Shown: in pieces, positions 1 to 29,844 of the stretch
Layout of the letters: each line of letters opens with the position of its first letter
Numbering within the stretch: position 1 is the stretch's first letter
NCBI RefSeq assembly: GCF_000406145.1
Contig: NZ_CM001976.1
Location: 4,455,175-4,487,174, forward strand
Origin: Dickeya dadantii NCPPB 898
GTDB lineage: Bacteria > Pseudomonadota > Gammaproteobacteria > Enterobacterales > Enterobacteriaceae
Direction of reading: 5' to 3'
Length of the DNA stretch: 32,000 bases
The notes under the pieces: model-generated
Databases searched by the model: none
What the model was told of the DNA's origin: nothing
Seen by the model: only the letters and a program-made list of their open reading frames with translations
Translations under genes and position numbers: made by a program

Positions 1-49
1 GATAGTAACCCGGACAATTACCATTACCCTGATCATAGGATGTACTCAT

Positions 50-1177
50 ATGACGGAACACATTACCTCCTCAACGCCCTCCGAAGAGGTGGTCGAACGG
101 GCTGAATCCACTCCTCCGCAAAAATCGCCGCCCGCCTCCGGTGCGCCGCGCCACGGTATTGTGCTGGGCGCCATCGCTATTGTGGTTTCGCTGGCGCTGA
201 GCGGCGGCGTCTACTATTACGCCCACCAGCAGATGACGCGTCAGAGTACCGCACTGACCCAATTGCAGGATCAGTTGACTGCGCTGCAAAAGCAGCAATC
301 ACAGGCGCAGCAGCAGTGGCAACAGACTCTGGATCAGCAGGCCAAAGCCCTGAGCGCCGATGAGCAGCGATTGGCGACCCTGACCCGGCAGGCCGGTGAA
401 ATGCAGGAAAAACTGGCCACTCTCGCTAACAGCGACTCCAAAACCTGGCTGCTGGCGCAGGCTGATTTTCTGGTCAAACAGGCCGGACGCAAGCTGTGGA
501 GCGATAAAGACGTCACCACCGCCGGTGCCCTGCTCAAAAGCGCCGATGCCAGCCTGGCGGACATGAACGACCCCAGCCTGATCGACGTGCGCCGGGCCAT
601 CACCCATGATATCGGCATGCTGGCAGGCGTCAGTCAGATCGACTTCGACGGCATCATCCTTAAAGTGAATCAGTTGGCGGATCAGGTGGACAACCTGCGG
701 CTGGCCGATACCGACTCCGACGAAGCGCCGATGGAAGAAAACGACTCGACGCTGTCGGCTTCGCTGAGCGAATGGCGGCAGAACCTGAGCAAGAGCTGGC
801 ATAACTTCCTGTCGGACTTCATCACCATCCGTCGCCGCGACGACAGCGCCGAACCGCTGCTGGCGCCGAATCAGGATGTGTATCTGCGTGAAAACATCCG
901 TTCACGCCTGCTGGTCGCCGCGCAAGCGGTGCCGCGCCACCAGAACGAAACGTACCGGCAATCGCTGGAAACGGCGGCGACCTGGATACGCGCCTACTTT
1001 GACGAAAGCGATCCGACCACCAAAGCGTTTCTGGACCAGTTGGACGCGCTGAGCCAGCAGTCGGTGGCGATGGATGTACCGAATGAACTGCAAAGCCAGC
1101 CGCTGCTGGACAAACTGATGCAAACCCGGGTCCGCAACCTGCTGGCGCAGCCGTCCGCCAAACCACAGGAGGGCTGA
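50..1177 (+). CDS. hemX: HemX (membrane-anchored protein of the hemCDXY operon)
   Basis: 375-aa ORF. It has one N-terminal TM segment ([23 protein letters not shown]) followed by a Q/A/L-rich coiled-coil-like region, as in enterobacterial HemX. hemY follows after a 2-nt gap. Confidence 0.9.
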
Positions 1178-1179
1178 AC

Positions 1180-2376
1180 ATGCTGAAGGTATTTCTGCTG
1201 TTTGTGGTGCTGATCGCCGGTATCGTAGTGGGGCCGATGCTGGCAGGCCATCAGGGTTACGTGCTGATCCAGACCGACAATTACAACATTGAAACCAGCG
1301 TCACCGGGCTGGTTATCATGCTGGTGCTGTTTCTGCTGGCGTTTCTGGCGGTGGAATGGCTGCTGCGGCGGGTGTTCCGCACCGGCGCCCGCACCCGCGG
1401 CTGGTTCATCGGCCGTAAGCGCACCCGGGCGCGTCAGCAAACCAAAGCGGCGCTGTTGAAACTGACCGAAGGCGACTATCTGCAGGTGGAAAAACTGCTG
1501 ACCCGCAATGCCGATCACGCAGAGCAGCCGGTGGTGAACTACCTGTTGGCGGCGGAAGCCGCCCAGCAGCGCGGCGACGAGTTCCGTACCCGACAATATC
1601 TGGAGCGGGCGGCGGAAATCGCCGACACGAATCAGTTGCCGGTGGATATCACCCGCGTTCGCATTCAACTGGCCCGTAACGAAGACCACGCCGCTCGTCA
1701 CGGCGTAGACCGTTTGCTGGAAGTGGCGCCGCGCCACCCGGAAGTCTTGCGGCTGGCGGAACAGGCGTTCCTGCGTACCCACGCCTACAGCGCTTTGCTG
1801 GATATCCTGCCCGCCATGCGTAAAACCCGGCTGCATGACGAATCCCAGCTGGATGAATTGCAGCAGCGCGCCACCATCGGTTTGATGGATCAGGCGATGG
1901 CGGAAGGCGGCAGCGAAGGGTTGAAACAGTGGTGGAAAAATCAGCCGCGTAAAGTTCGCCAGGCGCTGCCAATGCAGGTGGCCATGGCTGAACGGCTGAT
2001 TGTGTGTGATGACCACGTCACCGCACAGGACATCATTGTAGACGGGCTGAAGCAGCAGTTTGACTACCGGCTGGTACAGCTGATCCCCCGGCTCAATGCC
2101 GGTCAGCCGGAACCGCTGGAAAAACTGTTGCGCCTGCGTCTGAAACAGCACAACGATGACGCGCTGCTGCACAGCACGCTGGGGCAGTTACTGGCGAAGC
2201 ATGGCGAATGGCAACAGGCCAGCGATGCCTTCTCCGCCGCGCTGGCGTTGCGACCGGACGCCTACGACTACGCCTGGTGCGCCGATGCCTTTGACCGGCT
2301 AAAGCGCCCCGAAGACGCGGCCCGCATGCGGCGTGACGGTTTGTTACTGACGCTGCAGCCGCCCCACGACGCCTGA
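1180..2376 (+). CDS. hemY: HemY (inner-membrane TPR-like protein of the hem operon)
   Basis: 398-aa ORF, the length I recall for E. coli HemY. It has two N-terminal hydrophobic helices and a helical-repeat C-terminal part. The ATG lies 2 nt after the hemX stop. Confidence 0.9.
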   Translation: MLKVFLLFVVLIAGIVVGPMLAGHQGYVLIQTDNYNIETSVTGLVIMLVLFLLAFLAVEWLLRRVFRTGARTRGWFIGRKRTRARQQTKAALLKLTEGDYLQVEKLLTRNADHAEQPVVNYLLAAEAAQQRGDEFRTRQYLERAAEIADTNQLPVDITRVRIQLARNEDHAARHGVDRLLEVAPRHPEVLRLAEQAFLRTHAYSALLDILPAMRKTRLHDESQLDELQQRATIGLMDQAMAEGGSEGLKQWWKNQPRKVRQALPMQVAMAERLIVCDDHVTAQDIIVDGLKQQFDYRLVQLIPRLNAGQPEPLEKLLRLRLKQHNDDALLHSTLGQLLAKHGEWQQASDAFSAALALRPDAYDYAWCADAFDRLKRPEDAARMRRDGLLLTLQPPHDA

Positions 2377-2384
2377 CCTGCCCT

Positions 2385-2408
2385 GACCGGCGCGTTCCCG
2401 CGCCGGTC
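2385..2408 (+). terminator. Candidate hemY terminator hairpin
   Basis: GACCGGCGCG-TTCC-CGCGCCGGTC is a perfect 10-bp GC stem 9 nt after the hemY stop. The tail TTCACGTCTTCC is only partly T-rich. Confidence 0.55.
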
Positions 2409-2451
2409 TTCACGTCTTCCAGATAACACCATGATTTAGCTGAATAATGGC

Positions 2452-2656
2452 AAAAAAAAACGCTTACCGACCAGCGGCAAGCGTGCAATAAAAATCAGGT
2501 CTGAAAGACAACTTTAAGGTGCCCCACTCAACGTTACGTCCAACGGCGATGAAGCAAGCTTCATCAATAATCGGACGTTAGGCACCGTAAATGGCTCTGC
2601 GTCATTCCCAGGTTTATGAAGCCGAAGCAAGCATAGAAGGTGGAATGAGCATCTAC
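2452..2656 (-). ncRNA. glmZ: GlmZ small RNA (glmS-activating sRNA, SraJ/RyiA family)
   Basis: The minus strand reads GTAGATGCTCATTCCA...GGAATGACGCAGAGCCATTTACGGTGC...AACGTTGAGTGGGGCACC...TTGTCTTTCAGACCTGATTTTT, then a terminator hairpin (ACGCTTGCCG..CGGTAAGCGT) and T9. These blocks match the E. coli GlmZ sequence as I remember it. The position, convergent with the hemY 3' end, matches E. coli synteny. Confidence 0.88.
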
Positions 2657-2667
2657 ACGCTTAATAA

Positions 2668-2683
2668 AGCATGAATGATGCCA
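2668..2683 (-). promoter_or_regulatory. Sigma54 (-24/-12) type promoter of glmZ
   Basis: The minus strand reads TGGCATCATTCATGCT, so GG and GC have the exact TGGCAC-N5-TTGCW spacing. The GC lies 13-14 nt upstream of the predicted GlmZ 5' end at 2656. Confidence 0.7.
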
Positions 2684-2803
2684 ACTTCACTAAAATCCAA
2701 ATAGAAAAATATTATTCATTGATAAATAAGGAATTAAATATAAATCGCTGCTTAATACCGGCCTAACTAACCTGCTGAAAAATCAGGCATTCCTCACCAA
2801 TAC

Positions 2804-2917
2804 TGTCGCTAATAAGAGACGATGCCAACAGCGCTATTTATATCCTTTAAAAATCAAATGTTTATATGTCTCTCTTTGGCGACAGGAAGACACCCCAACT
2901 GTCGCCGAAAAGCCACA
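2804..2917. promoter_or_regulatory. Three GlrR(QseF)-type activator boxes upstream of glmZ
   Basis: Boxes are TGTC-N10-GACG (2804-2821), TGTC-N10-GACA (2867-2884) and TGTC-N10-CACA (2900-2917). Their centres lie about 156, 219 and 252 bp upstream of the GlmZ 5' end, spaced 63 and 33 bp apart (whole helical turns). A visibly AT-rich stretch (about 2690-2800) separates them from the -24/-12 element, which would suit DNA bending. Confidence 0.6.
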
Positions 2918-2938
2918 GGTAGCGTTTAGCTTACGATT

Positions 2939-2978
2939 CAAACAAAACGGCCACGGATAACCGTGGCCGTTTTGTTTG
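2939..2978 (-). terminator. Rho-independent terminator of the accessory ABC/amidohydrolase operon (symmetric hairpin)
   Basis: CAAACAAAACGGCCACGG-ATAA-CCGTGGCCGTTTTGTTTG is a perfect 18-bp inverted repeat 20 nt after the stop at 2998. A U-rich run follows the GC core on either strand. Confidence 0.8.
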
Positions 2979-2997
2979 ATAGGGCGCTGACGGGTGA

Positions 2998-4158
2998 TCA
3001 GGCGGTCTGCGGCAGTTGTTCCAGGCTCTGCTTCGCCAACTGATACAGGTAATGCGCGGTCGGGAACAGCGCACTATCATCCACCCGGAATTTGGGGTGA
3101 TGCAGCGCGTACGGGCCGCCAGAGCCGACCATCATAAAGGTGCCCGGCAGCTTCTGCTGGTAGAACGCGAAGTCTTCGCCGATGGGGCTGGCTTCGACGC
3201 GACGCGCCTCAAACCCTTCGTCATCAGCGACCTGCAGCGCGAAGTCCACCCAGCGCGGCGTGTTCACCACCGATGGCGGTCCGGCGTGCCAGATAAATTC
3301 GATTTCCGCGCCAAAGGTGCTGGCGATGCCGGCCACAATCTGGCGGAAACGCTGTTCAATCAGGTCACGCACCGCCTGACTAAAAGTACGCACCGTTCCT
3401 TCCACATAGGCGGTGTCCGGAATCACGTTCCAGGTGCTGCCGCTGTGCACCTGGGTGATCGACACCACCGCATTATTGTCGGACGGCACGGTACGGCTAA
3501 TAATGGTCTGCACGGAGGAAATCAGCTGCCCCAGAATAATGATCGGATCATTGCCTTCGTGCGGCTTGGCGGCGTGGCAGCCTTTGGCGGCAATCTTGAT
3601 TTCGAAACGGTCCACCCCGGCGGTCAGCGCGCCGTCTTTACCGCCAATCACGCCGACCGGCAGCGTTGGGTCGTTATGAATGCCGAAAATGGCGGTCGCG
3701 CCGTCCAGCGCGCCGACGGCGATCACTTCCGGCGCGCCCAGCCCGGTTTCTTCAGCCGCCTGAAACAGAATACGCACGGTGCCTTTCAGTTCCGGCTCAA
3801 TGCGTTTAAGCAAAATCGCCGCCCCCAGCGCCGCCGAAGAATGGAAATCGTGACCGCAAGCGTGCATCACGCCGGCATTCTTCGAACTGAATTCGACGCC
3901 GGACTCTTCTTCAATCGGCAGGGCGTCGATGTCGGAACGCACCACCACCAACGGGCCGTCCTGCAGGCCACCCACTTCCGCCACCAGACCGGTTTTCAGC
4001 GGCAGATCCAGAATGCGGATCCCTTCTTTTTCCAGCACGGCGCGAATTTTCCGCGTGGTTTCAAACTCCTGATTGGACAATTCCGGATGCTGATGCAAAT
4101 CGTGCCGGAACGCCTGAATAAACTGCGCCAACGGCGCATGCTGGGCATGCTCTTTCAT
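2998..4158 (-). CDS. M20-family amidohydrolase (N-acyl-L-amino-acid deacylase, hippuricase/YxeP-like)
   Basis: 386-aa ORF with the metal-ligand context MHACGHDFH and a GIHNDP motif typical of the M20D aminoacylase/ILR1 group. A GAGGAG Shine-Dalgarno lies 9 nt upstream of the ATG. It is the last gene of the operon. Confidence 0.85.
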   Translation of the reverse strand: MKEHAQHAPLAQFIQAFRHDLHQHPELSNQEFETTRKIRAVLEKEGIRILDLPLKTGLVAEVGGLQDGPLVVVRSDIDALPIEEESGVEFSSKNAGVMHACGHDFHSSAALGAAILLKRIEPELKGTVRILFQAAEETGLGAPEVIAVGALDGATAIFGIHNDPTLPVGVIGGKDGALTAGVDRFEIKIAAKGCHAAKPHEGNDPIIILGQLISSVQTIISRTVPSDNNAVVSITQVHSGSTWNVIPDTAYVEGTVRTFSQAVRDLIEQRFRQIVAGIASTFGAEIEFIWHAGPPSVVNTPRWVDFALQVADDEGFEARRVEASPIGEDFAFYQQKLPGTFMMVGSGGPYALHHPKFRVDDSALFPTAHYLYQLAKQSLEQLPQTA

Positions 4159-4237
4159 GTAGGGTCACTCCTCTTTTTTCAGCCCTGCCTCGCAGGGCGG
4201 CCCGACGCGTCGAGCCTGCAGGTGAATACGTTATCGA

Positions 4238-4999
4238 TCAGATATCGAACTCTGATGGTTCCTGAATGTTAGTCAGCTGTCGCAGGAAGCGGCGGGTCTG
4301 CGGGTTGTCGGAGAAACTGATCACTTTCTCCGCCGGGCCTTGCTCGACAATGTGTCCATCGGCCATAAAGATCACGCGGTCCGCCACCTCTTTGGCGAAC
4401 TGCATCTCATGGGTCACAATCACCATGGTGGTGTTCTGCCCCGCCAGTTTCTGGATAACCTGCAACACTTCATGCACGCGCTCCGGGTCAAGCGCCGAGG
4501 TCGGCTCATCAAACAGGATCGCTTTAGGGTCCACCGCCAGCGCACGGGCGATGCTGACGCGCTGCTGTTGGCCGCCGGACAGCGTCACCGGATACTGGTG
4601 CGCCTGCGGCAGCAGCCCCACCAGCTCCAGCAGCGACAGCCCAATCTCGTCCGCCTGCTTTTTCGGCATTTTCTTCACCACAATCAGGGCTTCGGTGATG
4701 TTTTCCAGCGCGGTCTTGTTCTTGAACAGGTTGTAGTTCTGGAACACCATCGCCGTCTGGCGTCTGAGCGCATACTCTTCCTTGCCGGTATAACGGCGAG
4801 TATCCAGCGACTGCTCGCCGATGGTAATGGTGCCGGATTCCGGCTTCTCCAGCAGATTCAGGCAACGCAACAGGGTGGATTTGCCCGAGCCGGACGGCCC
4901 GATGATCGCCACCACCTCGCCCTGGGCGATATCCAGACTGATGTTGTTCAGCACCACCTGGTCGCCAAAACGTTTGGTCAGGTTTTTTACGCTAATCAT
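4238..4999 (-). CDS. Polar amino-acid ABC transporter ATP-binding protein
   Basis: 253 aa with Walker A GPSGSGKST, ABC signature LSGGQQQRVSIARAL and Walker B ILFDEPTSALD. An AAGGAG SD overlaps the end of the permease gene. Confidence 0.93.
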   Translation of the reverse strand: MISVKNLTKRFGDQVVLNNISLDIAQGEVVAIIGPSGSGKSTLLRCLNLLEKPESGTITIGEQSLDTRRYTGKEEYALRRQTAMVFQNYNLFKNKTALENITEALIVVKKMPKKQADEIGLSLLELVGLLPQAHQYPVTLSGGQQQRVSIARALAVDPKAILFDEPTSALDPERVHEVLQVIQKLAGQNTTMVIVTHEMQFAKEVADRVIFMADGHIVEQGPAEKVISFSDNPQTRRFLRQLTNIQEPSEFDI

Positions 5000-5008
5000 G
5001 TCGGCTCC

Positions 5009-5680
5009 TTAACGCTGCCGTGAGTGGCTGAGTTTCTTCTCCAGCTGAGACTGCAGCCAGGAGTAAACCACAATGAGCATCCAGTAAATCAGCCCTACCA
5101 CCAGGAAAGTTTCGAAGAAGCGCAGCGATTCGGCGGCGATCATCTTGCCTTCGGCAAACAGTTCCGACACCCCGAGCGCAAAAGCCACCGAGGTATCTTT
5201 AATCAGCGAAATAAAGGTGTTGCCGGTGGCAGGCAGCGCATTGAGCATCGCCTGCGGCAGCACGATGCGGCGATAAATCTGCGCCTTGTTCATCCCTACC
5301 GACAGACCGGCTTCGGTTTGCCCGAAATCCACCGACGCCAGCGCCGCCCGGAAAATCTCCGCCATATAAGCCGAGTTCTTCAGGCTAAAGCCGATAATCG
5401 CCGCCGTCATGGCGGACAGGCCATTCAGTGACGGGAACAGCTGGGGCAGGCCGAAATAGATGATGAACAATTGCACCAGCGACGGGATACCGCGAAACAG
5501 CGAGATATAGAGCTCAACCAGTTTCGCCACCACAACGAAGCGGCTCTCGCGAACCAGCGCCAGCACCAGTCCCAGCACGATGGCAAACAGCATCGATACC
5601 ACCGCCAGCAACAGCGTGGTGGGTAAGTACATCAACACCTGGGGAAAAACTTTCAGCAGGTAGGAAAGATCGATATTCAT
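5009..5680 (-). CDS. Polar amino-acid ABC transporter permease (HisM/TcyL-like)
   Basis: 223-aa hydrophobic ORF with an EAA-loop-like segment (QTEAGLSVGMNKAQIYRRIVLPQA). It lies 9 nt upstream of the ATPase gene. Confidence 0.9.
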   Translation of the reverse strand: MNIDLSYLLKVFPQVLMYLPTTLLLAVVSMLFAIVLGLVLALVRESRFVVVAKLVELYISLFRGIPSLVQLFIIYFGLPQLFPSLNGLSAMTAAIIGFSLKNSAYMAEIFRAALASVDFGQTEAGLSVGMNKAQIYRRIVLPQAMLNALPATGNTFISLIKDTSVAFALGVSELFAEGKMIAAESLRFFETFLVVGLIYWMLIVVYSWLQSQLEKKLSHSRQR

Positions 5681-5698
5681 GGGTCATACCATTAACAC

Positions 5699-5728
5699 TG
5701 ACGCCAGCCGCGAATCTGGCTGGCGTCA
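5699..5728 (-). other. Intercistronic stem-loop between the binding-protein and permease genes
   Basis: TGACGCCAGCC-N8-GGCTGGCGTCA is a perfect 11-bp stem in the 72-nt gap after the binding-protein stop. No U-tract follows, so it is not a classical terminator. Confidence 0.5.
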
Positions 5729-5752
5729 CAGGAGTTGAGCGAGCAGGCAGGG

Positions 5753-6532
5753 TTATTTGCCCGCCGTGATGTCCTCGCCGAAATATTTAACAGACAGGGC
5801 TTTCAGTCGGCCATCACTGCGCATTTTGTTCAGTTCGTCATCAAACTTCTTGCGCAGCTCGTCGCCTTTCTGATCTTTATGGAACGGGAAGCCCACCTGC
5901 TCCACCACCAGCGGCTCGCCCACCAGCTTGAACGGCAGGTTGCGCTTATTGATTTCCGCCAGCAGGATCGGGCGGGAGTTGATGTAACCTTCCACACGTT
6001 TCGCCAACGCATCGCTCATGGCGCCGTCGCGGGTTTCGTAAGTGCGAATGTTGACGCTGCCGTCGGCAAAGGCTTTTTTCAGGTTGTTGACGTGGTTGGA
6101 ACCCAGCACGCCCGCCACGGTTTTGCCTTTCAGATCATCCAGCGTATTGATGTTGGCGTTGTCTTTATGCGTAACGATCTGACTGCCGTAATAGCTGTAC
6201 GGCTGGGAGAAGCTGTATTTCTCCTGACGCGCTGGGGTAATCGCCACCACGTTGGCGATGGTGTCCAGCTTGCTGGCTTCCAGTTGCCCCATCAGGCCGC
6301 TGAAATCCGCCGTCACCCACTCGACTTTGTAGTTCAAATCTTTAGCGATGGTTTCCGCCACTTCCACGTCAAAACCAACCAGCTTGTTGTCCTGTTTGAA
6401 CGAACTCGGGTAGCTCTGCCCGGTGGCGCCGATACGCAGTACCTTCTCGCCGCTGTTCTGAGAATCGCAACCCGCCGCCAGAATGGCCGCAGACAAGGCT
6501 AATACAGGGAGGATAATTTTTTTCATAGTCAT
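5753..6532 (-). CDS. Amino-acid ABC transporter substrate-binding lipoprotein (family 3 SBP, cystine/FliY-like)
   Basis: 259 aa. The signal peptide has the lipobox LAAGC (MTMKKIILPVLALSAAILAAGC). The body resembles polar amino-acid binding proteins. An AAGAGG SD lies 9 nt upstream. Confidence 0.9.
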   Translation of the reverse strand: MTMKKIILPVLALSAAILAAGCDSQNSGEKVLRIGATGQSYPSSFKQDNKLVGFDVEVAETIAKDLNYKVEWVTADFSGLMGQLEASKLDTIANVVAITPARQEKYSFSQPYSYYGSQIVTHKDNANINTLDDLKGKTVAGVLGSNHVNNLKKAFADGSVNIRTYETRDGAMSDALAKRVEGYINSRPILLAEINKRNLPFKLVGEPLVVEQVGFPFHKDQKGDELRKKFDDELNKMRSDGRLKALSVKYFGEDITAGK

Positions 6533-6545
6533 CGAATAACGCCTC

Positions 6546-7070
6546 TTAGGGGTGTTTCTTTTCCCAGTGATGATAAAGGTCCTGATCCAGGACTTTTCGC
6601 ATGTAAATCGTGAGGTGTCCTTTCCCTAAATCCGCCTGGCCGACTTCCTGAAAGCCATATTTCCGGTACATTTCCAGCAACCAGGGATGCTGTTTGGCCG
6701 TGCCCAGCGTCACGGCGGGTGCTTTTAACTGGTCTTTCAGCACCGCCTGCTCCAGCCAGTCCAGCATCTGTTTGCCCAGCCCCTGTTGTTTGAAGTCCGG
6801 ATGGGTGGCGAACCAACCGATGTGCGGTAATCCGTACGGGCCGGGATTCGGCCCCCACGGATAGCGAAGGGTGACAGACGCGGCCAGACGCCCGTCTTTC
6901 TCCATCACATACACGCCGTTGCTGCGCAGATGGCGGCGCACCATATCGATGTCCGCATAGGCGGCGTCAAACTTGATGCCCAGTTCGCGCACCGGCGCAT
7001 AAGCGGCCAGCGCCAGCGCCAAAAATGCCTCATCGTCCGCAGACGTGGCCTGACGAAATACGGTACTCAT
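6546..7070 (-). CDS. GNAT-family N-acetyltransferase
   Basis: 174 aa with the acetyl-CoA motif A QQGLGKQML. A GGGAGAGG SD sits between the lyase stop (7082) and this ATG. Confidence 0.85.
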   Translation of the reverse strand: MSTVFRQATSADDEAFLALALAAYAPVRELGIKFDAAYADIDMVRRHLRSNGVYVMEKDGRLAASVTLRYPWGPNPGPYGLPHIGWFATHPDFKQQGLGKQMLDWLEQAVLKDQLKAPAVTLGTAKQHPWLLEMYRKYGFQEVGQADLGKGHLTIYMRKVLDQDLYHHWEKKHP

Positions 7071-7081
7071 GGCCTCTCCCG

Positions 7082-8446
7082 TTACTCGGCCAGCAGACCG
7101 GTGCCATCCGCGTACCGGATCACCTCATCAACTTTCTGCGGCGCGCTGCCGACATAGTTCGCCGGATCCAGCCAGGCATCCAGCGTATCCGCCGTCAGGT
7201 GCTGCGACAGCACCGGATGCTCCAGCAGCAACGCCTTGAACTCGCGGTTCTGTTCGAACGCCGCCATCGAGCATTCATACACCAGGTGATGTGCCGTCTG
7301 TTTGCCGAGCAGTTTGCCGATTTCGAACATCACTTTTTCCGACAGCAGCAGGCCGTTTTGCAAATCCAGATTGGCGCGCATCTGCTTTTCGTTCACCGAC
7401 ATACCACGCAGGATGCCAAGCGCGTTCTGCAACTGCGCCGACAGATAGATGTTGATTTCCGGCAGCGCGATCCACTCCGCGCGCCAGCTCATGGCGTCAC
7501 GTTCGTGTTCGACTTTCATTGATTCGTGGATCAGGGCGGCGCTCTTAAACAGCGGCGCCGTCAGGCTGGCAAGCCCTTCCAGCGCGGCCGGATTGCGTTT
7601 GTGCGGCATGGTAGTAGAGCCGATCTTCCCTTCGGAGAACGGCTCTTCGATTTCGTTGATTTCGGTGCGCATCAGGTTGTACAGCTCGTTGCCGATTTTA
7701 CCGAGCGTACCGCTGATCAGCACCGCCACCGACGCGTATTCCGAGAAACGGTCGCGGGCGGACTGCCAGCCGATATTTGGGGTATTCAAACCCAGACGGG
7801 TCAGGGTATGGCGTTCGATTTCCGGCCCCAGCTCGCCAAAAGAGGCATAGGTGCCGATAGCGCCGTTGATGTTACCTACCAGCACACGCTCACGGATTTC
7901 ATTCAGGCGTTGCAGGTGACGCACAAACTCGTCCAGCCATACCGCCAGCTTGAAACCAAAGGTGGTCGGCAACGCCTGCATGCCGTGGGTACGGCCGGTC
8001 ATCAGCGTATGCTGGTGTTTCTTCGCCAGTCGTTTCAGTTCGATAGCCACCAGACGGGTGTCGCGCACCACGATGTCGAACGCCTGACGCAGCTGTAATA
8101 CCGTGGCGGTATCCACCACATCCTGCGTGGTCACGCCATAATGGATGTACTCGCCGGCTTCGCCGCACTGCCTCTGGATAGCGGCAATGGTCGGCATCAG
8201 AGAATGCTTCATGCGCACCGCATCCTGAGCGATCTCTTCAATATTCAGTGCGCTGGCGTTGGCGTGGGAAGCAATAGTGCTGGCCGCGTCCTGCGGGATG
8301 ACACCCAGATCGCCTTCTGCCAGCGCTAACGCGATTTCCACGTCAACCTGGCGGGTCAGGCGATTCTGCTCTGACCATACGGCGCGCATTTCTGGTGTGC
8401 CAAAGTTATTTCCAATAAGAAGAAAATCAATCAGATGTGATGCCAT
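7082..8446 (-). CDS. Adenylosuccinate-lyase-family (aspartase/fumarase superfamily) lyase, probably not housekeeping PurB
   Basis: 454 aa. It carries the fumarate-lyase signature GSTTMPHKRNP and the conserved HYGVTTQDVVDT and MTGRTHGMQALPTTFG blocks. Its architecture resembles Bacillus-type PurB/PcaB rather than enterobacterial PurB. It is the first gene of the six-gene operon. Confidence 0.85.
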   Translation of the reverse strand: MASHLIDFLLIGNNFGTPEMRAVWSEQNRLTRQVDVEIALALAEGDLGVIPQDAASTIASHANASALNIEEIAQDAVRMKHSLMPTIAAIQRQCGEAGEYIHYGVTTQDVVDTATVLQLRQAFDIVVRDTRLVAIELKRLAKKHQHTLMTGRTHGMQALPTTFGFKLAVWLDEFVRHLQRLNEIRERVLVGNINGAIGTYASFGELGPEIERHTLTRLGLNTPNIGWQSARDRFSEYASVAVLISGTLGKIGNELYNLMRTEINEIEEPFSEGKIGSTTMPHKRNPAALEGLASLTAPLFKSAALIHESMKVEHERDAMSWRAEWIALPEINIYLSAQLQNALGILRGMSVNEKQMRANLDLQNGLLLSEKVMFEIGKLLGKQTAHHLVYECSMAAFEQNREFKALLLEHPVLSQHLTADTLDAWLDPANYVGSAPQKVDEVIRYADGTGLLAE

Positions 8447-8465
8447 AACTCACTCGTTTACATTG

Positions 8466-8494
8466 TAATAATGGGGGAAAGAGAGGCGGGTCAA
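8466..8494 (-). promoter_or_regulatory. Candidate sigma70 promoter of the lyase operon
   Basis: The minus strand has TTGACC (8494-8489), a 17-nt spacer and TTATTA (8471-8466), about 20 nt upstream of the lyase ATG. The -10 element is weak and there is no other support. Confidence 0.3.
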
Positions 8495-8885
8495 GACGAC
8501 GCTGTTGTTTGTTGGCGACTATATCACCGGCGATATTCCCGCCTATATACCCGATCGATATAAGATATTCTTTATTGTTTTATGATTTCGTTGGCAATTA
8601 TTTTCCTGAAAACTATGTAATCAGTCTAACTCCTGATATGCCGTTTGCGATGGCCTGCACCGAATGCGTGCGTCCCCATTACGCCATCTTCGCCGGTAAA
8701 TCAGGATATGGTCATCGCCCCGGCTGGAAGCGCCGGAAGTAAAAGGATTATTTTTCAATCGATTAAACTTAAAGGACTCACCCCGCACTATCCGTTTTCG
8801 GCAATTCTGTCCCTGCCCACGCCAGAGGCGGCGTACTGGCTCAGGAATTGCTTGAATTCATGGGGTTTACTGGCTGGAGGCCAAC

Positions 8886-9866
8886 ATGGAATCTGTCGTT
8901 TTTTCCAGACCGGCAAATGCATCCGCGTCGTTAAGTCATCTGCGCTCATCCAATATTGAAGAGCACGCTGCCGGCATGACCGGCTGGTCATTGCAGTACA
9001 ATCAACTGACACCGGGGAAATTTTCCGGTCGGTTGACGGTCCTGGAGCTGGAGGGCATTCAGTTCGTCCGGGATCGCGTCAATCTGGCGTTATTCAAAAG
9101 CGGCCAGGCCAGAAAAGAGCTGCTGTTCACTTTTCCTCTGCATGCTCCCTGCGCCGATTTTTACTGCGCTGGGCACCAAATCAACCGCCACAGCCTGCTG
9201 GTGGCGCCATCCGCTTCGCTGCCGGATCTGCGCGCGCCGGAACACATTGATTTGTTGGCCATCAGCGTGGACGCAGCCTGCTTTACCACCCTGTTCGACG
9301 ACGCAGATGACCGGGCGTTGAATACGCCGCAGGTATTCCCGCTTAATGACCCTGACAACCTGACCCGCTGGCAAATGCTAAGCGACAGCCTTGACGAAGA
9401 AAGCCGGCGCAACGCGACACTGCTGGACTTCACGGCTATCCGTAAAGGGCTGCGCGATACGCTGTTGATTTCCCTGTCGGATATGGTGGGGCATTCGCAG
9501 GCGCTGAGGCTAACCGGCAGCGCCAAAAAGCGCATCGTGGACCGGGCGCAGGAGTATATGCTGACCCACTGCGAAAACCCGCCCTCGATTCTGGAGCTGT
9601 GCAAACACGCCGGCGCCAGCCGCCGCAAACTTCAGTATTGTTTCCAGGAAACGCTGGGCATCAACCCGGTAAGTTATCTGCGCGTGCTGCGCCTCAATGG
9701 AGTACATCGTGACCTGCTAAAGGGCGCACCTTCGGTGCAAGATGTCGCCTACGGCTGGGGATTCTGGCATCTTAGCCGCTTCGCCAACGACTACCGCCGA
9801 CTGTTTGGCGAACCGCCCTCCGCCACGCTGGCCCGTAGCCGTCACAACTGTGCTAATTTCGGCTAA
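8886..9866 (+). CDS. AraC-family transcriptional regulator (EutR/FeaR-like architecture)
   Basis: 326 aa. The C-terminal dual HTH is typical of AraC/XylS, and the ending WGFWHLSRFANDYRRLFGEPPSATL resembles EutR-type regulators. A GGAGG SD lies 6 nt upstream. Confidence 0.88.
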   Translation: MESVVFSRPANASASLSHLRSSNIEEHAAGMTGWSLQYNQLTPGKFSGRLTVLELEGIQFVRDRVNLALFKSGQARKELLFTFPLHAPCADFYCAGHQINRHSLLVAPSASLPDLRAPEHIDLLAISVDAACFTTLFDDADDRALNTPQVFPLNDPDNLTRWQMLSDSLDEESRRNATLLDFTAIRKGLRDTLLISLSDMVGHSQALRLTGSAKKRIVDRAQEYMLTHCENPPSILELCKHAGASRRKLQYCFQETLGINPVSYLRVLRLNGVHRDLLKGAPSVQDVAYGWGFWHLSRFANDYRRLFGEPPSATLARSRHNCANFG

Positions 9867-9922
9867 CATTGTTTCATCTTCATTACCTACGCTGACCAAC
9901 AACAAATACAGCGAAAAGGAAT

Positions 9923-10867
9923 ATGAAGATGAATTTTCTCAGCAATATCTCGTCATTTATTCGCAATTTATTAATATTTTCGACACTTTCGACAATAATG
10001 ACCGGTGTGGCTCAGGCGGCTGAAAACGGCACCCCCACCACGGCCGCCGGCGTGTATGATTTCGGCACCGGTTTCCTGCCGCTCACCACGGATTTCGGCA
10101 CCTTCGGCTCCCGTATCGCGTTCTATACCGCGCACACCAACCGTGACAACAACGGCAACACGCTCAACGCCCCCTTTTCATTGCAGGTACTATCGATGAG
10201 TCTGGCCTGGATGAAAATGACCGACCAGACGCTACTCGGCGGCCGCTATGGTTTCGGCCTGATCCAGCCGTTCTTCAAAATGGATATCGACATGACGGTG
10301 CCTACGCCGGCAGGCGGGCTGACGCTGCGCGACAACGTATTCCGCGCAGCGGACCTACAAGTCATACCGTTGATTCTCGGCTGGACGCCCGCCCCCAATC
10401 TTGCCATCAATACCCAGTTCCAGATTCAGGCGCCAACCGGCGACTATGACCGCAACCGTCTGGTTTCTCCGGGGCTAAACCACTGGGTTTTCTCTCCCAT
10501 CATCAACGCCACCTATATTACGTCCAGTGGGTTCGAGGTTTCCTCCAGCCTGGAGGTGGATGTCAACACGCAAAATCATGCCACCGATTACCGCAACGGC
10601 GTCGAATACCGCTACGAATATGCGCTGGGGCAACATATCGGTGCCTGGACAGTCGGCGTCGGCGGTTATTACTACAACCAGTTCAGCGACGACAGCAGCC
10701 CGACGCTGACACAGGGTATCCGCTCACGGACCTTCGCCTATGGCCCGGCGGTCAGCTATTTCACCCCCAAAGGTCCGGCAATTTGGGTACACGCCTATAA
10801 GGAAAACTATTCCCGCAACCGCAGCGAAGGCTACACCCTCGCCTTTCGCATCGCACAAAGCTTCTGA
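9923..10867 (+). CDS. Outer-membrane beta-barrel channel (MetA-pathway/phenol-degradation-type transporter family)
   Basis: 314 aa. The signal peptide ends AQA|AE. The mature part has alternating, aromatic-rich beta-strand character, with the motif PTGDYDRNRLVSPGLNHWVFSP and a C-terminal Phe (AQSF). The family assignment is from memory. Confidence 0.75.
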   Translation: MKMNFLSNISSFIRNLLIFSTLSTIMTGVAQAAENGTPTTAAGVYDFGTGFLPLTTDFGTFGSRIAFYTAHTNRDNNGNTLNAPFSLQVLSMSLAWMKMTDQTLLGGRYGFGLIQPFFKMDIDMTVPTPAGGLTLRDNVFRAADLQVIPLILGWTPAPNLAINTQFQIQAPTGDYDRNRLVSPGLNHWVFSPIINATYITSSGFEVSSSLEVDVNTQNHATDYRNGVEYRYEYALGQHIGAWTVGVGGYYYNQFSDDSSPTLTQGIRSRTFAYGPAVSYFTPKGPAIWVHAYKENYSRNRSEGYTLAFRIAQSF

Positions 10868-10880
10868 CGGAGACGCCATC

Positions 10881-12104
10881 ATGCAGTCAATACTGACTAC
10901 CCCGGCCGAAGGACGAATTCCGCGCGCCAGCCGCGAAGGGCTAATACTGATCCTCGGCGGCAGCCTGACCATCATGGGTTCGGTGATGATCGCTGCGGTG
11001 ATGCCGAAGATCGACGCCGAGTTCGGCCCGCGCACACCGGCCGCCGACGTGCTGGTTCCATTGGCTATCACCGGCCCGGCGCTGGCGATGGCGCTGTTTT
11101 CCCCGCTGGTCGGCTGGCTGGCCGACCGTTTCGGCCGCAAAAATTTGCTGATTCTGGCTACTGTGCTGTACGCCGTCACCGGTATGCTGCCGGCATTACT
11201 GGACGACCTCGGCAGCATCGTACTGAGCCGTCTGGTATTCGGTTGCGCTGAAGCCGCCATCATGACCTGTTGCACCACATTGATTGCCGATTACTGGCAC
11301 GGCCAGGAGCGAGGGCGCTTCGTCAATCTACAGGTGGTATCCATCGGGATTGTCGGTGCGTTGTTCTTTGTCATCGGCGGAGCACTCGGCGAGCACAGCT
11401 GGCGCCTGCCTTTTTATCTGTATCTGCTGCCGCTGTTGCTGGTGCCCGCCATGATCGGCGTGCTGTGGGAACCTCAGGTGAAACCGCGCGCCAGACAAAA
11501 ACAACCGGAGGCCGGTCAGCCGACGGTGTCCGGTACCCTGCTGGCCAACTACCTGCTGGTGTCTGGCGGTATGGTGCTGGCGTTTGTGGTGCCGGTGCAA
11601 ACGCCGGCGCTGCTCGTGCAGAAAGGTATCACTTCCAGCACGCTGATCGGGCTGTCCGCCGGACTCGGCCTGCTGGCATCACTTGTCGGTTCGCTGCTGT
11701 GGCCCTGGTTTCGCCATCGTGTGGGGATCGCGGGCGTTAATACTTTACTGCTCACGCTGGAAGGAGTCGGCTTATGGCTGCTGGTGCATGCTGGAGATTA
11801 CCCACAAGTACTGCTGGCGGTGTCCGTGCACGGTATCGGCGTCGGTATGCTGGTCCCCAATACGATGCTGCCGGTCATGAATGCGTTATCCGAGCGGCAT
11901 CGGGGTAAAGGCCTCGGCGTATTTACCGGTTGTCTGTATATCGGGCAATTCATCAGCCCATTGGTTGTCGCCGTCATAGCGAATGTTGCGCACAACATCC
12001 AGGGATCGATCCAATTATTGTCTGTCGCCAGTCTGGCAGGCGCGCTGGCATGGCTGTTCACCGGTCTGAAACGCCAATCCGCCCAGATCGCCAAAGACAA
12101 ATAA
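10881..12104 (+). CDS. MFS transporter
   Basis: I prefer the ATG at 10881, with a GGAG SD 13 nt after the OMP stop, over the track start at 10740, which overlaps the OMP gene. It has about 12 hydrophobic segments and the MFS motif A GWLADRFGRK. Confidence 0.88.
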   Translation: MQSILTTPAEGRIPRASREGLILILGGSLTIMGSVMIAAVMPKIDAEFGPRTPAADVLVPLAITGPALAMALFSPLVGWLADRFGRKNLLILATVLYAVTGMLPALLDDLGSIVLSRLVFGCAEAAIMTCCTTLIADYWHGQERGRFVNLQVVSIGIVGALFFVIGGALGEHSWRLPFYLYLLPLLLVPAMIGVLWEPQVKPRARQKQPEAGQPTVSGTLLANYLLVSGGMVLAFVVPVQTPALLVQKGITSSTLIGLSAGLGLLASLVGSLLWPWFRHRVGIAGVNTLLLTLEGVGLWLLVHAGDYPQVLLAVSVHGIGVGMLVPNTMLPVMNALSERHRGKGLGVFTGCLYIGQFISPLVVAVIANVAHNIQGSIQLLSVASLAGALAWLFTGLKRQSAQIAKDK

Positions 12105-12156
12105 CAGCTGATTATAAAAACCAATTAAAAGAGTCAGATACATAAGGAGGCGTTAC

Positions 12157-13611
12157 GTGAAACACATCCATCAGTTACTGGACACACAGGATGGCGTCGG
12201 GCTGGCCGGTTTGGTGACATGCGGCGAAGTCAAGCCTGCGGAACTGGTTGAAGCCGTGATTGAACGTCTGGAACAAGTCAACCCCAGCCTCAATGCGGTG
12301 GCCGAACCGCTTTACGACAGCGCCCGACACGCCGCCCGCACGATGGAGATCGCTCAGGGCGGCGCGCTGGCAGGCGTTCCTACGCTGGTCAAAGACCTGT
12401 TTACCGCGGTGAAAGAAGCAAGAATGACCAACGGTTCGCTGGCACCGGGCGAAACATATCCCGGACTCGACGATGAAATGATGCGGCGCTATCGCAAAGC
12501 GGGCATCCTGATTGTCGGTACATCTACGTCGCCGGAGTTTGGTTCTTCCTACACCACCGAATCCACCCGCTTCGGCGCCACCCGTAACCCGTGGAATACG
12601 CAACACAGCGCCGGAGGCTCCAGCGGCGGCGCTGGTGCGCTGGTAGCGGCTCGCGTGGTGCCGTTCGCCCACGGCAATGACGGCGGCGGTTCACTGCGGG
12701 TGCCGGCATCCTGCTGCGGCGTCTTCGGGCTGAAACCGACCCGGGGGCGAATGCCAAGCGGGCCGCTGGCAGGCGAAGGCTGGGCAGGGATGGGCGCACC
12801 CCATGCAGTGACGCTCTCGGTACGCGACAGCGCTGCGCTGCTGGATATCGCGTCAGGGGCCGACGCAGGCGCGCCTTACGCCGCGCCATACCAAAGCGAA
12901 CCTTTCATGGCGGCGCTGTCACGCCCTGCCCGCACACTGCGTATCGCGCTGGTCGAACATCTCTCCCCCTGGGTTACCAGCGAACAAGCGCTAAGCGCCG
13001 TCCGGCACACCGCCAGGCTGTGCGAACGCCTGGGCCACCAGGTCGATGTGGCGACGCTCCCGGTGACGGCGGAAAAATTCTTCAGCGATGCCTTTACCAT
13101 TATCAGCGTCAACACGCAGGAATACGTCGATCTGCTCGGCCATATGCGGGGAGCGCCGGTCAGGCCGGAAGAACTGGAGCCCAGAACTCGGGTCATGTTA
13201 CGTGAACGCGGCCGTCAGTCTGGCGTCGAATACGTGGCGGCGGTTAACGCCATGCATGCGCTAGGCCGACAGTTTGCCGGATTCATGCAGGATTATGATC
13301 TGATCCTGACGCCGACGCTGACTCGTGAACCGACGCCGATCGGCACACTGGATGCGTTTGACGATCGGCTCACCGTGGACGATATCATTGAAGGCTTCCA
13401 CCGTTATTGCCCGTTTACCGCGCTATTCAACGCCACCGGACAACCGGCGATGTCAGTGCCGCTTTACTGGACGCCGGGGGGCCTGCCGATCGGCTCTCAT
13501 TTCGCCGCCCGCTTTGGCGACGAAAACACGCTGCTGGCGCTGGCGGCACAGCTGGAGCAGGCGCAACCCTGGGCTGGCCGGGTGCCGCCGGTCAATGCGT
13601 TGTCAACATAA
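12157..13611 (+). CDS. Amidase-signature (AS) family amidase
   Basis: 484 aa with a GTG start 6 nt after a strong TAAGGAGG SD. The amidase signature GGSSGGAGALVAARVVPFAHGNDGGGSLRVPAS is present, as are Ser-cisSer-Lys triad candidates (VKDL Lys, GGSS, GGSLR). Confidence 0.9.
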   Translation: MKHIHQLLDTQDGVGLAGLVTCGEVKPAELVEAVIERLEQVNPSLNAVAEPLYDSARHAARTMEIAQGGALAGVPTLVKDLFTAVKEARMTNGSLAPGETYPGLDDEMMRRYRKAGILIVGTSTSPEFGSSYTTESTRFGATRNPWNTQHSAGGSSGGAGALVAARVVPFAHGNDGGGSLRVPASCCGVFGLKPTRGRMPSGPLAGEGWAGMGAPHAVTLSVRDSAALLDIASGADAGAPYAAPYQSEPFMAALSRPARTLRIALVEHLSPWVTSEQALSAVRHTARLCERLGHQVDVATLPVTAEKFFSDAFTIISVNTQEYVDLLGHMRGAPVRPEELEPRTRVMLRERGRQSGVEYVAAVNAMHALGRQFAGFMQDYDLILTPTLTREPTPIGTLDAFDDRLTVDDIIEGFHRYCPFTALFNATGQPAMSVPLYWTPGGLPIGSHFAARFGDENTLLALAAQLEQAQPWAGRVPPVNALST

Positions 13612-13655
13612 CGCCACGTCAAAAGCGCGTTCGGCTGACTGAGGCTTACTGTTAT

Positions 13656-13683
13656 AAAAAAGACCGCCGGAGCGGTCTTTTTT
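13656..13683. terminator. Bidirectional rho-independent terminator between the amidase and NTF2-like genes
   Basis: AAAAAAGACCGC-CGGA-GCGGTCTTTTTT is a 6-bp GC stem flanked by A6 and T6. It lies between two convergent stops. Confidence 0.8.
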
Positions 13684-13714
13684 ATACACTGCGAACGCCA
13701 CCGCATTCGCATAA

Positions 13715-14050
13715 TTACGCAAAATAGAACCATGCCGTCGCAATCAATCCGTCTTTGACTTCAAACACCGCGATGCTTTCGATCGGTTCAGGTTCTATGC
13801 CGTAAATCTTTTCATGATCAAAAACATGGTTACCCAGCACCGTGCGGGACACCAGCTCGGCTCGCAGCGCCGGGTTATTGAACCGGTGGTCGCGATAGAA
13901 GGTTTCCAGCGCGGCTTTTCCCTCCATGGACGAGTTTTCGGATGGCATGCGGTAAGCCCGGAAGTCGTCGTGGAAACAGGCGACAAAAGCGGTCAGGTCA
14001 TGGGCGTTGTAGGCGGCAAACTGTTTTTCAACCGGATCGATGATTGACAT
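13715..14050 (-). CDS. NTF2/SnoaL-like small protein of unknown function
   Basis: The ORF track gives 13715..14062 (115 aa). I favour the ATG at 14050 because the first codons, ATGGAGAGTGCT, form a GGAGAG SD for it. Its size and alpha+beta cone-type sequence (DLTAFVACFHDDF...) suggest the NTF2-like superfamily. Confidence 0.6.
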   Translation of the reverse strand: MSIIDPVEKQFAAYNAHDLTAFVACFHDDFRAYRMPSENSSMEGKAALETFYRDHRFNNPALRAELVSRTVLGNHVFDHEKIYGIEPEPIESIAVFEVKDGLIATAWFYFA

Positions 14051-14147
14051 AGCACTCTCCATTTAAATGCAATAATCATGAATAAAAATTCAATTCGACG
14101 TAATACACCAGTCAGCGGTGGAAAGCAAATCCGGCGGGAAAAACCAT

Positions 14148-14180
14148 AAAAAAAACGGCAGCCCATTTGGGCTGCCGTTT
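14148..14180 (-). terminator. Rho-independent terminator of the tRNA operon
   Basis: The minus strand reads AAACGGCAGCCC-AAAT-GGGCTGCCGT followed by T8, starting 14 nt after the tRNA-Pro 3' end. Confidence 0.85.
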
Positions 14181-14193
14181 CTTAAGAATAGGA

Positions 14194-14270
14194 TGGTCGG
14201 CGAGAGAGGATTCGAACCTCCGACCCACTGGTCCCAAACCAGTTGCGCTACCAAGCTGCGCTACTCGCCG
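14194..14270 (-). tRNA. proM: tRNA-Pro (anticodon UGG)
   Basis: 77 nt. The reverse complement reads CGGCGAGTAGCGCAGCTTGGTAGCGCAACTGGTTTGGGACCAGTGGGTCGGAGGTTCGAATCCTCTCTCGCCGACCA, identical to E. coli proM as I recall it, and includes the encoded CCA. Confidence 0.95.
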
Positions 14271-14310
14271 ATCCCGATTTAGAACACGTACATTACTGCT
14301 GTTGTTTGTG

Positions 14311-14396
14311 TGGTGCGAAGAGAGGGACTTGAACCCTCACGTCCGAAGGACACTAACACCTGAAGCTAGCGCGTCTACCAATTCCGCCACCTTCGC
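14311..14396 (-). tRNA. leuT: tRNA-Leu (anticodon CAG)
   Basis: 86 nt. The reverse complement starts GCGAAGGTGGCGGAATTGGTAGACGCGCTAGCTTCAGGTGTTAGTGTCC. It has a long variable arm, a TTCAAGTCCC T-arm and an encoded CCA. Confidence 0.93.
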
Positions 14397-14416
14397 CTGT
14401 CACAAACTTTAAAATT

Positions 14417-14493
14417 TGGGGTGGCTAATGGGACTCGAACCCACGACAACTGGAATCACAATCCAGGGCTCTACCAACTGAGCTATAGCCACC
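14417..14493 (-). tRNA. hisR: tRNA-His (anticodon GUG)
   Basis: 77 nt. The reverse complement reads GGTGGCTATAGCTCAGTTGGTAGAGCCCTGGATTGTGATTCCAGTTGTCGTGGGTTCGAGTCCCATTAGCCACCCCA, including the extra 5' G typical of tRNA-His. Confidence 0.95.
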
Positions 14494-14574
14494 ATATACC
14501 ACTGCTTTACTACGTATTCCAGTACTCAACTTACGGGGTAATAAGTACCTCCGCAGCTCCCGCACTCAATTTAA

Positions 14575-14651
<77 letters not shown>

Positions 14652-14672
14652 ATAGCGCCGTTGCGGGTGGGG

Positions 14673-14701
14673 ATAGTACGGATTTAATATGGGCCTGTCC
14701 A
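14673..14701 (-). promoter_or_regulatory. Candidate sigma70 promoter of the argX-hisR-leuT-proM operon
   Basis: The minus strand has TGGACA, a 17-nt spacer and TACTAT, followed by the GC-rich discriminator CCCCACCCGC typical of stringently controlled stable-RNA promoters. An A-tract (GAAAAAGC) lies just upstream. The -10 element ends 21 nt upstream of the tRNA-Arg 5' end. Confidence 0.5.
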
Positions 14702-14797
14702 GTGCTTTTTCACAGAAATGATGCGTTTGCTTATGCTTTGCTCATTTGAGCTCAAAACCCGCTTCAATCCACCGTCACCACCCGCCGTTAGCCGCGA

Positions 14798-16192: not shown

Positions 16193-16426
16193 ATAACCTC
16201 TGTCTTTAATGGTTCCTTTTTACGCCGGCATCAAAAGCGTTATTGTTTTATACCCGTCATGTTTCACATGGGTATACCGGCTCTCTCCCGGCAAAGCATT
16301 ACCGCTCCCCGACCGGAAAAACGGCCGAGAAGATACCGCAATGCAAACCGGATTCCTACCCTTCCTGTACCCGGACATGATGAAATAAACAGCGCAGGCA
16401 GACCTTGATCACAACGATAAAGCGGT

Positions 16427-16481
16427 AAAAAAAGTGGTACGACGGGCAGCAAGCGCGAAGCCAGGCCGCCGTCGCCATACC
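16427..16481 (-). terminator. Candidate terminator after wecG
   Basis: The minus strand has GGTATGGCGACGG, a 21-nt loop and CCGTCGTACC, followed by ACTTTTTTT. The stem is imperfect and the loop long, so support is moderate to low. Confidence 0.35.
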
Positions 16482-16505
16482 AGCCAGCACCGTATTGAAA
16501 CGCGC

Positions 16506-29725: not shown

Positions 29726-29844
29726 GTTTTACTCCGCAGGATTATCTCTACCCAGTTGGTGTAGCATTAACCAACTATTAGGTTGACTTTATTTCACTGG
29801 ATACGCTTTCGTAAAGCAATAGTTAACTGATATTCTACCACGCT

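Follow-up and report, generated by a model that had tools for sequence, protein, structure and literature searches.

The stretch of DNA analysed here, hereafter the window, covers 32,000 nucleotides of the Dickeya dadantii NCPPB 898 genome (contig NZ_CM001976.1, positions 4,455,175 to 4,487,174 of the forward strand). Its gene at 7082-8446, on the minus strand, almost certainly encodes an S-(2-succino) lyase (2SL) and not the purine enzyme PurB, and is the first gene of a six-gene operon for the salvage of S-(2-succino)cysteine (2SC). The protein is assigned as an N-acetyl-S-(2-succino)cysteine (2SNAC) lyase of the aspartase/fumarase superfamily, within the branch that resembles adenylosuccinate lyase (ADL) and PcaB. 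This finding is already known, as enzyme, operon and species are the same as those of the 2SL published in 2022, and nothing in our data contradicts the assignment. The residual value of the present analysis is annotation hygiene, together with small additions on the distribution of the locus and on a conserved upstream element.

BLASTP analysis reports that 452 of the 454 residues of the window lyase (99.6%) are identical to E0SKP1 of D. dadantii 3937, an entry that carries the name 'N-acetyl-S-(2-succino)cysteine lyase' in UniProt and falls in the same 90% cluster. The window sequence itself is an exact match to the D. dadantii RefSeq protein WP_038912156.1. The two differences from E0SKP1 (A241 and A424, each a threonine in the latter) are conservative and are located at sites that vary among orthologues. 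The chromosomal locus is also the same, window positions 1-18447 being colinear with the D. dadantii 3937 chromosome around E0SKP1 at 98.2% nucleotide identity from end to end. The other characterised 2SL, from Enterococcus italicus DSM 15952, is ~62% identical to the window lyase.

These two enzymes, from D. dadantii DSM 18020 (E0SKP1) and from E. italicus DSM 15952 (E6LDH5), have been characterised by Hillmann et al. (J Biol Chem 2022; PMC9706529), whose comparative genomics had identified a lyase class I gene replacing yxeK in some yxe clusters and named its product 2SL. The starting compound, 2SC, is the stable adduct arising from the spontaneous reaction of fumarate with the cysteine thiol. 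Expression of E0SKP1 restores the growth of a Bacillus subtilis ΔyxeK strain with 2SC as sole sulfur source, and the purified protein splits 2SNAC to yield fumarate together with N-acetylcysteine (Km 1.2 mM, kcat 0.35 s-1, kcat/Km 0.29 mM-1 s-1), favouring 2SNAC ~60-fold over free 2SC (PMC9706529). This conversion is reversible, with a Kc of 0.0046, and the enzyme takes other small thiols, but neither glutathione nor coenzyme A (PMC9706529). Lysates of E. coli, which contain the native PurB, are devoid of 2SNAC lyase activity (PMC9706529). An earlier note, made from the letters of the window alone, had proposed not a purine enzyme but a C-S (S-succino) lyase with a succinated amino acid as its substrate, and the near identity with a proven 2SNAC lyase bears this prediction out. 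The substrate class proposed there stands as well, with the refinement that the N-acetylated adduct is the preferred form. As for the accompanying view that C-S specificity is unusual in this family, the other members are indeed known chiefly for eliminations at C-N and C-O bonds, but such specificity was already on record, from 2SL in 2022 and from XcbD.

The lyase protein and its family

The interval 7082-8446 is a single unbroken minus-strand ORF of 454 codons that opens with ATG at 8446 and closes with a stop codon at 7082-7084, while its plus-strand translation is riddled with stops. The earlier note had described this ORF and three motifs correctly, only the strand being missing from it. 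The motifs are HYGVTTQDVVDT (residues 102-113), MTGRTHGMQALPTTFG (residues 149-164) and GSTTMPHKRNP (residues 276-286). They contain the three conserved regions of the superfamily, TTQD (106-109), RTHG (152-155) and GSTTMPHKRN (276-285), the last of which conforms to the signature loop GSxxMxxKxN. Pfam analysis reports a Lyase_1 domain (E=2e-44) and an ADSL_C domain (E=5.5e-20), both far above chance. Alignment with E. coli PurB superimposes His154 on H171 and Ser277 on S295, designating His154 (nt 7985-7987, minus strand) and Ser277 (nt 7616-7618, minus strand) as the predicted catalytic pair that completes the features of an aspartase/fumarase superfamily member. A scan with the lyase, taking one genome per species, returned 77 related loci (57-98% identity), with D. 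dadantii not among the matches; their gene content was established by tblastn with the window proteins, and residue conservation was computed on 75 lyase orthologues. Ser277, Lys283, Asn285 and Glu290 are unchanged across these orthologues (75/75 for Ser277), and His154 is found in 74 of the 75.

RefSeq and UniRef give nearly all members of this clade the name 'adenylosuccinate lyase' or 'PcaB', E0SKP1 being the only correctly named one among the listed cluster members. The first name corresponds to a reading of the gene as a genuine Bacillus-type adenylosuccinate lyase (PurB) of purine synthesis or salvage. Besides the database labels, it draws on NCBIfam analysis, in which the lyase scores 365.9 bits with the purB equivalog TIGR00928 and exceeds its cut-off of 326.2 bits, a pass that may drive the RefSeq label. 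However, the lyase remains below the cut-offs of two other models, the 'adenylosuccinate lyase' subfamily NF006500 (486 vs 626 bits) and NF006764 for enterobacterial PurB (99.5 vs 446 bits), and it shares only 26% of its residues with E. coli PurB when the two are aligned directly. The earlier note had placed the protein close to Bacillus-type PurB and PcaB and away from enterobacterial PurB, in agreement with these scores. Moreover, the gene is tied to a cluster of GNAT, ABC importer and deacetylase genes in 77/77 loci with no purine genes nearby, and it is the 99.6%-identical enzyme that is the proven 2SNAC lyase, which together make a PurB function very improbable.

The second name would make the protein a 3-carboxy-cis,cis-muconate cycloisomerase (PcaB) of protocatechuate catabolism. 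Some database records are indeed so named, the PcaB model NF006554 reports 400 bits, and 1re5 and 1q5n, two PcaB structures, belong to the closest solved relatives. Nevertheless, every PcaB model remains under its cut-off (595 bits for NF006554; 282 vs 356 and 186 vs 371 bits for two further models), and the experimental data on the orthologue point elsewhere. No pca genes occur in the window or in the related loci, the earlier note having likewise remarked on the absence of purine and aromatic-catabolism genes nearby, and PcaB was rejected as an identity that is scarcely credible. XcbD, the second-best NCBIfam match, was rejected likewise, as it reaches 452 bits (451.9) for a cut-off of 600 and no xcbA, xcbB, xcbC or xcbE neighbours were found. 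By sequence, the closest solved relatives are Tad1 (9h4e), the 'fumarate lyase' 3c8t and PcaB 1re5, with 250-313 bits, and no 2SL structure is present among the matches of the lyase to solved structures. The general statement of the earlier note, according to which all members of the superfamily eliminate fumarate from a C-N or C-O bond, was too broad: the family includes the cycloisomerase PcaB, the decarboxylase Tad1 and the phosphate-eliminating XcbC. No 2SL-specific model is found among the NCBIfam matches of the lyase and, given also the RefSeq and UniRef names and the TIGR00928 pass, automated metabolic reconstructions could count a false second PurB.

A canonical purB is documented in the relatives of D. 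dadantii. In Dickeya solani, a transposon-sequencing gene table lists purB (1368 bp) in the order nudJ-mnmA-hflD-purB-phoP-phoQ-roxA-pepT, as in E. coli, and the same species possesses a lyase orthologue belonging to the same 90% cluster as the window lyase. Canonical PurB proteins, with a PF08328-type C-terminus and 88-89% identity to E. coli PurB, are found in Pectobacterium polaris, P. brasiliense, P. carotovorum, Brenneria roseae, B. tiliae, Lonsdalea britannica and Symbiopectobacterium, all of which also carry lyase orthologues (82-89% identical). No Dickeya PurB entry appeared among the best 120 matches with either E. coli PurB or Pectobacterium PurB as the query. Since D. solani has both a canonical purB and a 2SL orthologue, the possibility that the lyase is the only purB homologue does not hold at the level of the genus. 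At that level the gene would be an extra paralogue, as had been proposed, with the hflD-purB-phoP arrangement of D. solani as evidence, and it would have neither the canonical locus nor the sole-copy status of a purine-pathway enzyme.

Several points weigh against the 2SL assignment. The biochemistry was performed on the 3937 protein and not on the window allele, the roles of the GNAT and of the transporter in Dickeya are drawn from the published pathway, and the evidence for a canonical PurB comes, as just described, from D. solani and sister genera rather than from D. dadantii. The TIGR00928 cut-off is exceeded, and no adenylosuccinate or SAICAR assays are reported for 2SL (PMC9706529), two points that also speak for PurB. 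Finally, the Dickeya enzyme is weak on 2SNAC, as its kcat/Km indicates, and the equilibrium favours synthesis (PMC9706529). Because of this low efficiency and of the direction of the equilibrium, a better physiological substrate is conceivable, and the protein might be a C-S lyase with another main substrate in Pectobacteriaceae, either a related N-acetylated S-(dicarboxyalkyl)cysteine or a small succinated thiol of plant tissue. The modest kinetics and thiol promiscuity of the Dickeya enzyme would fit such a role, as would the fact that Tad1 and PcaB, among its closest solved relatives, act on other unsaturated dicarboxylates. Against this, the Dickeya gene alone restores the growth of B. subtilis ΔyxeK on 2SC, the operon corresponds gene for gene to the 2SC pathway, and no alternative substrate has been demonstrated. 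We consider such a shift in substrate unlikely and retain the 2SL assignment.

The operon and the proposed salvage pathway

Five genes follow the lyase on the same strand, separated by gaps of 11, 13, 72, 9 and 79 nt. The lyase is therefore the first of six same-strand genes, as expected from its description in the earlier note as the leader of a transport and acyl-transfer operon, and the neighbours named there (a cystine-like ABC importer, a GNAT and an aminoacylase) are as described according to Pfam and NCBIfam, the aminoacylase being an M20 amidohydrolase. The first partner is a GNAT acetyltransferase (6546-7070, minus strand), for which Pfam reports Acetyltransf_1, Acetyltransf_7 and Acetyltransf_10. 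Since it has no solved relative by sequence, its link to B. subtilis YxeL (ScmL) relies on its position in the locus and on PMC9706529, and it is presumed to be the 2SC N-acetyltransferase, which would make 2SNAC, the preferred substrate of the lyase. The three genes of the ABC importer come next on the minus strand and are conserved in the related loci. They encode a periplasmic substrate-binding protein (5753-6532, SBP_bac_3; YxeM role), a permease (5009-5680, BPD_transp_1; YxeN role) and an ATPase (4238-4999, ABC_tran; YxeO role). The best NCBIfam match of the binding protein is the cystine substrate-binding protein (149 bits, cut-off 312), the permease scores 203 bits with the cystine permease model (cut-off 300), and the ATPase 318 bits with the TcyN model (cut-off 406). 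The term 'cystine-like' is appropriate because all three proteins match the E. coli cystine models best yet remain below the equivalog cut-offs.

The last gene of the operon (2998-4158, minus strand) encodes an M20 amidohydrolase with Peptidase_M20 and M20_dimer domains, assigned as an N-acetylcysteine deacetylase of the YxeP/ScmP type. Among solved structures, B. subtilis YxeP (1ysj) is by far its closest relative, with 401.6 bits (E=2.7e-119) and residues 17-380, almost the full length, aligned, whereas the next-best structure reaches only 208 bits. An acetyltransferase, an ABC importer and an N-acetylcysteine deacetylase thus share the strand of the lyase, with 9-79 nt between consecutive genes, as in the yxe/scm-type clusters. 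The preference of the lyase for the N-acetylated adduct explains the adjacency of the GNAT and of the deacetylase. Of the proteins encoded in the 32-kb window that were compared with Pfam or NCBIfam, none is a flavin monooxygenase, in keeping with the published statement that yxeK is replaced by 2SL at the D. dadantii locus and that such genomes are devoid of a close yxeK homologue (PMC9706529). The lyase would accordingly stand in for the oxygen-dependent flavin monooxygenase YxeK/ScmK of B. subtilis.

If we assume that the operon works as its published counterparts do, the cystine-like importer would bring 2SC into the cell, where the GNAT would acetylate it to 2SNAC, by analogy with the YxeL step of B. 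subtilis. The lyase then removes the succinyl group by β-elimination, breaking the C-S bond and releasing fumarate and N-acetylcysteine, the reaction demonstrated with the purified 3937 enzyme. From the mechanism of the superfamily and the alignment with PurB, Ser277 of the signature loop would take the proton from succinyl C3 and His154 would serve as general acid. Lastly, the M20 protein would deacetylate N-acetylcysteine to cysteine, a step suggested by its strong homology to YxeP. The operon thus provides both metabolite-damage repair and sulfur salvage for 2SC, an 'oncometabolite adduct'.

Flanking regions and distribution of the locus

Upstream of the lyase, a repeat search reports two 14-nt direct repeats, CGGGTATATAGGCG and CGGTGATATAGTCG (coding strand), located 24 nt apart at 8516-8553 (minus strand), just upstream of a promoter-like site. 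Both repeats have a TATA core that does not vary in the upstream regions of eight genera (Dickeya, Pectobacterium, Brenneria, Samsonia, Symbiopectobacterium, Lonsdalea, Pantoea and Sodalis), which designates the pair as a candidate regulator binding site; that the regulator might be a sulfur-responsive activator is a reasonable guess. The promoter-like site, TTGACC and TATTAC separated by 18 nt (8465-8494, minus strand), was read by eye and is conserved within Dickeya only, and a Shine-Dalgarno-like GAGTGAG is located between it and the ATG at 8446. It may represent the lyase promoter, a weak suggestion from sequence. A consensus scan called no promoter in the intergenic region 8447-8885, and Rfam detects neither a riboswitch nor a leader upstream of this gene. 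At the other end, a consensus scan by pattern match detects a terminator-like hairpin at 2947-2964 (minus strand), ~34 nt past the stop codon of the M20 gene, which is probably the end of the operon. A more specific scenario combines the upstream element with the question of the substrate: in soft-rot Pectobacteriaceae, the operon would harvest sulfur from an S-(dicarboxyalkyl)cysteine that differs from 2SC and derives from the plant or from host damage, and would be induced by a sulfur-responsive activator via the dual-repeat element. If true, the low 2SNAC efficiency of the Dickeya enzyme would reflect a different preferred substrate, but we hold this scenario to be a long shot.

Divergent from the lyase is a separate unit (8886-13611, plus strand) that encodes an AraC/EutR-like regulator, a MetA-type (Phenol_MetA_deg) outer-membrane channel, a transporter of the major facilitator superfamily (MFS) and an amidase. 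The longest ORF of the MFS transporter (10740-12104, plus strand; 454 residues) overlaps the preceding outer-membrane protein gene by 128 nt, and its true start is probably further downstream, since the strain 3937 gene comprises 407 residues. D. dadantii 3937 also possesses the unit; upstream of the lyase, it is missing from Pectobacterium, D. undicola, D. oryzae and all other scanned loci. The regulator gene (8886-9866) was considered as the operon regulator and rejected, as neither Pectobacterium, D. undicola and D. oryzae nor any of the 77 loci shows a counterpart of it upstream of the lyase. Because the whole island is absent there, this gene probably does not regulate the operon and more likely serves the adjacent outer-membrane protein, MFS and amidase genes.

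Among the related loci, a GNAT homologue is found immediately downstream of the lyase in every case, down to 57% lyase identity, followed in nearly all of them by the ABC importer and then by the M20 gene, a PrpD/YxeQ-like gene, or both. Independent look-ups in Pectobacterium and Gilliamella agree on this gene context. The loci occur in Pectobacterium, Brenneria, Samsonia, Symbiopectobacterium, Lonsdalea and Sodalis, in Pantoea, Rahnella, Klebsiella michiganensis and Providencia, in Orbaceae (Gilliamella, Orbus, Zophobihabitans) and Pasteurellaceae (Haemophilus, Aggregatibacter, Pasteurella), and in Thorsellia, Zymobacter, Georgenia (Actinomycetota), one Clostridiales metagenome-assembled genome (MAG) and E. 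italicus DSM 15952. The conservation of the context speaks for regarding the whole clade as 2SL, and the lyase-GNAT adjacency offers a simple rule for recognising the enzyme. The distribution of 2SL orthologues was called unclear in PMC9706529; the clade extends to human-associated Pasteurellaceae, Klebsiella and Providencia and to the bee-gut Gilliamella.

The gene content varies around this core (locus numbers, prefixed L, are ours). In the Gilliamella variant (within L042-L061), the lyase, GNAT and ABC genes are accompanied by a convergent PrpD/YxeQ-like gene, and M20 is missing. The Rahnella/Klebsiella variant (among L051, L053, L055, L060 and L079, from Rahnella, Klebsiella michiganensis and Pantoea sp.) has the order lyase-GNAT-M20-PrpD, with only distant ATPase and permease genes (products 33-54% identical to those of the window) on the opposite strand, while the Pasteurellaceae loci possess both PrpD and M20. 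Several genera, though not the window, have a second SBP_bac_3 paralogue close to the operon, with 58-65% identity to the operon's own binding protein, either ~1.5-3 kb upstream of the lyase (L008, L020, L022-L025, L027, L029, L080) or immediately upstream of it (L037-L039). In certain insect-associated genomes, namely the Symbiopectobacterium MAGs L029 and L083, Gilliamella sp. Lep-s35 (L082), L031 and L032, the lyase frame is truncated (117-180 codons to the stop) or transporter genes are missing, which is consistent with symbiont pseudogenisation or with assembly errors. As for the apparently split M20 gene of a JGI contig (L001, sample 3300030446), it was set aside, the interruption at 14791-14861 being a run of N, that is, an assembly gap and no mutation.

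Beyond the operon, Rfam reports a full-length GlmZ/SraJ small RNA (RF00083, 160 bits) at 2454-2656 (minus strand), between hemY and the operon end, with a strong hairpin at 2484-2460 as its terminator. A tRNA cluster, Arg(CCG)-His(GTG)-Leu(CAG)-Pro(TGG), at 14194-14651 (minus strand) adjoins thrP/yifK and the enterobacterial common antigen (wec) cluster. The 2SC operon and the amidase island are thus located between glmZ and the tRNA cluster, a slot that we take to be the place of aslA/aslB in E. coli and that would suggest a variable region. Lastly, a TrxA 5'-untranslated-region thermometer (RF02773, 85.9 bits) is found at 29696-29784 (minus strand), between rho and rhlB.

Comparison with known systems

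The closest known system is that of D. dadantii 3937, the same species in another strain, in which the six-gene operon around E0SKP1 and its flanks (hemXY on one side, the AraC, outer-membrane protein, MFS and amidase genes on the other) are the same as in the window. More distant is E. italicus DSM 15952, a Firmicute, whose locus (L072) has the same order of lyase, GNAT, substrate-binding protein, permease, ATPase and M20 genes, but differs by a PrpD/YxeQ-like gene upstream. Its 2SL (E6LDH5) shares the catalytic motifs of the window lyase, and catalyses the same reaction with the same preference for 2SNAC as the Dickeya enzyme, from which it differs by a ~6-fold higher turnover and a ~14-fold lower Km for fumarate (PMC9706529).

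The B. subtilis yxe/scm operon follows the same strategy of import, N-acetylation, breakdown and deacetylation, and the last Dickeya gene is a homologue of its YxeP. The breakdown step is different: in B. subtilis, the FMN- and O2-dependent monooxygenase YxeK/ScmK yields oxaloacetate and N-acetylcysteine, whereas in Dickeya an unrelated lyase yields fumarate and N-acetylcysteine, and the operon is devoid of a YxeQ/PrpD gene. Regarding the lyase itself, it shares with Bacillus-type ADL (TIGR00928), PcaB, Tad1 and 3c8t the fold family, the Lyase_1 and ADSL_C domains, the GSxxMPHKRNP loop and the catalytic Ser/His pair. Compared with Bacillus-type ADL and PcaB, the leaving group of 2SL is a thiol and not an amine or a carboxylate, and its context is sulfur salvage and not purine or aromatic metabolism. 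A parallel in chemistry is XcbD, the 3-sulfopropionylcysteine synthase of bacterial coenzyme M biosynthesis, an ADL-like enzyme that forms a C-S bond with cysteine (PMC9457059). Both proteins belong to the same ADL-like branch and perform the C-S chemistry of cysteine on an unsaturated acid, but XcbD uses sulfoacrylate instead of fumarate and free cysteine instead of N-acetylcysteine, and serves a biosynthetic role (PMC9457059).

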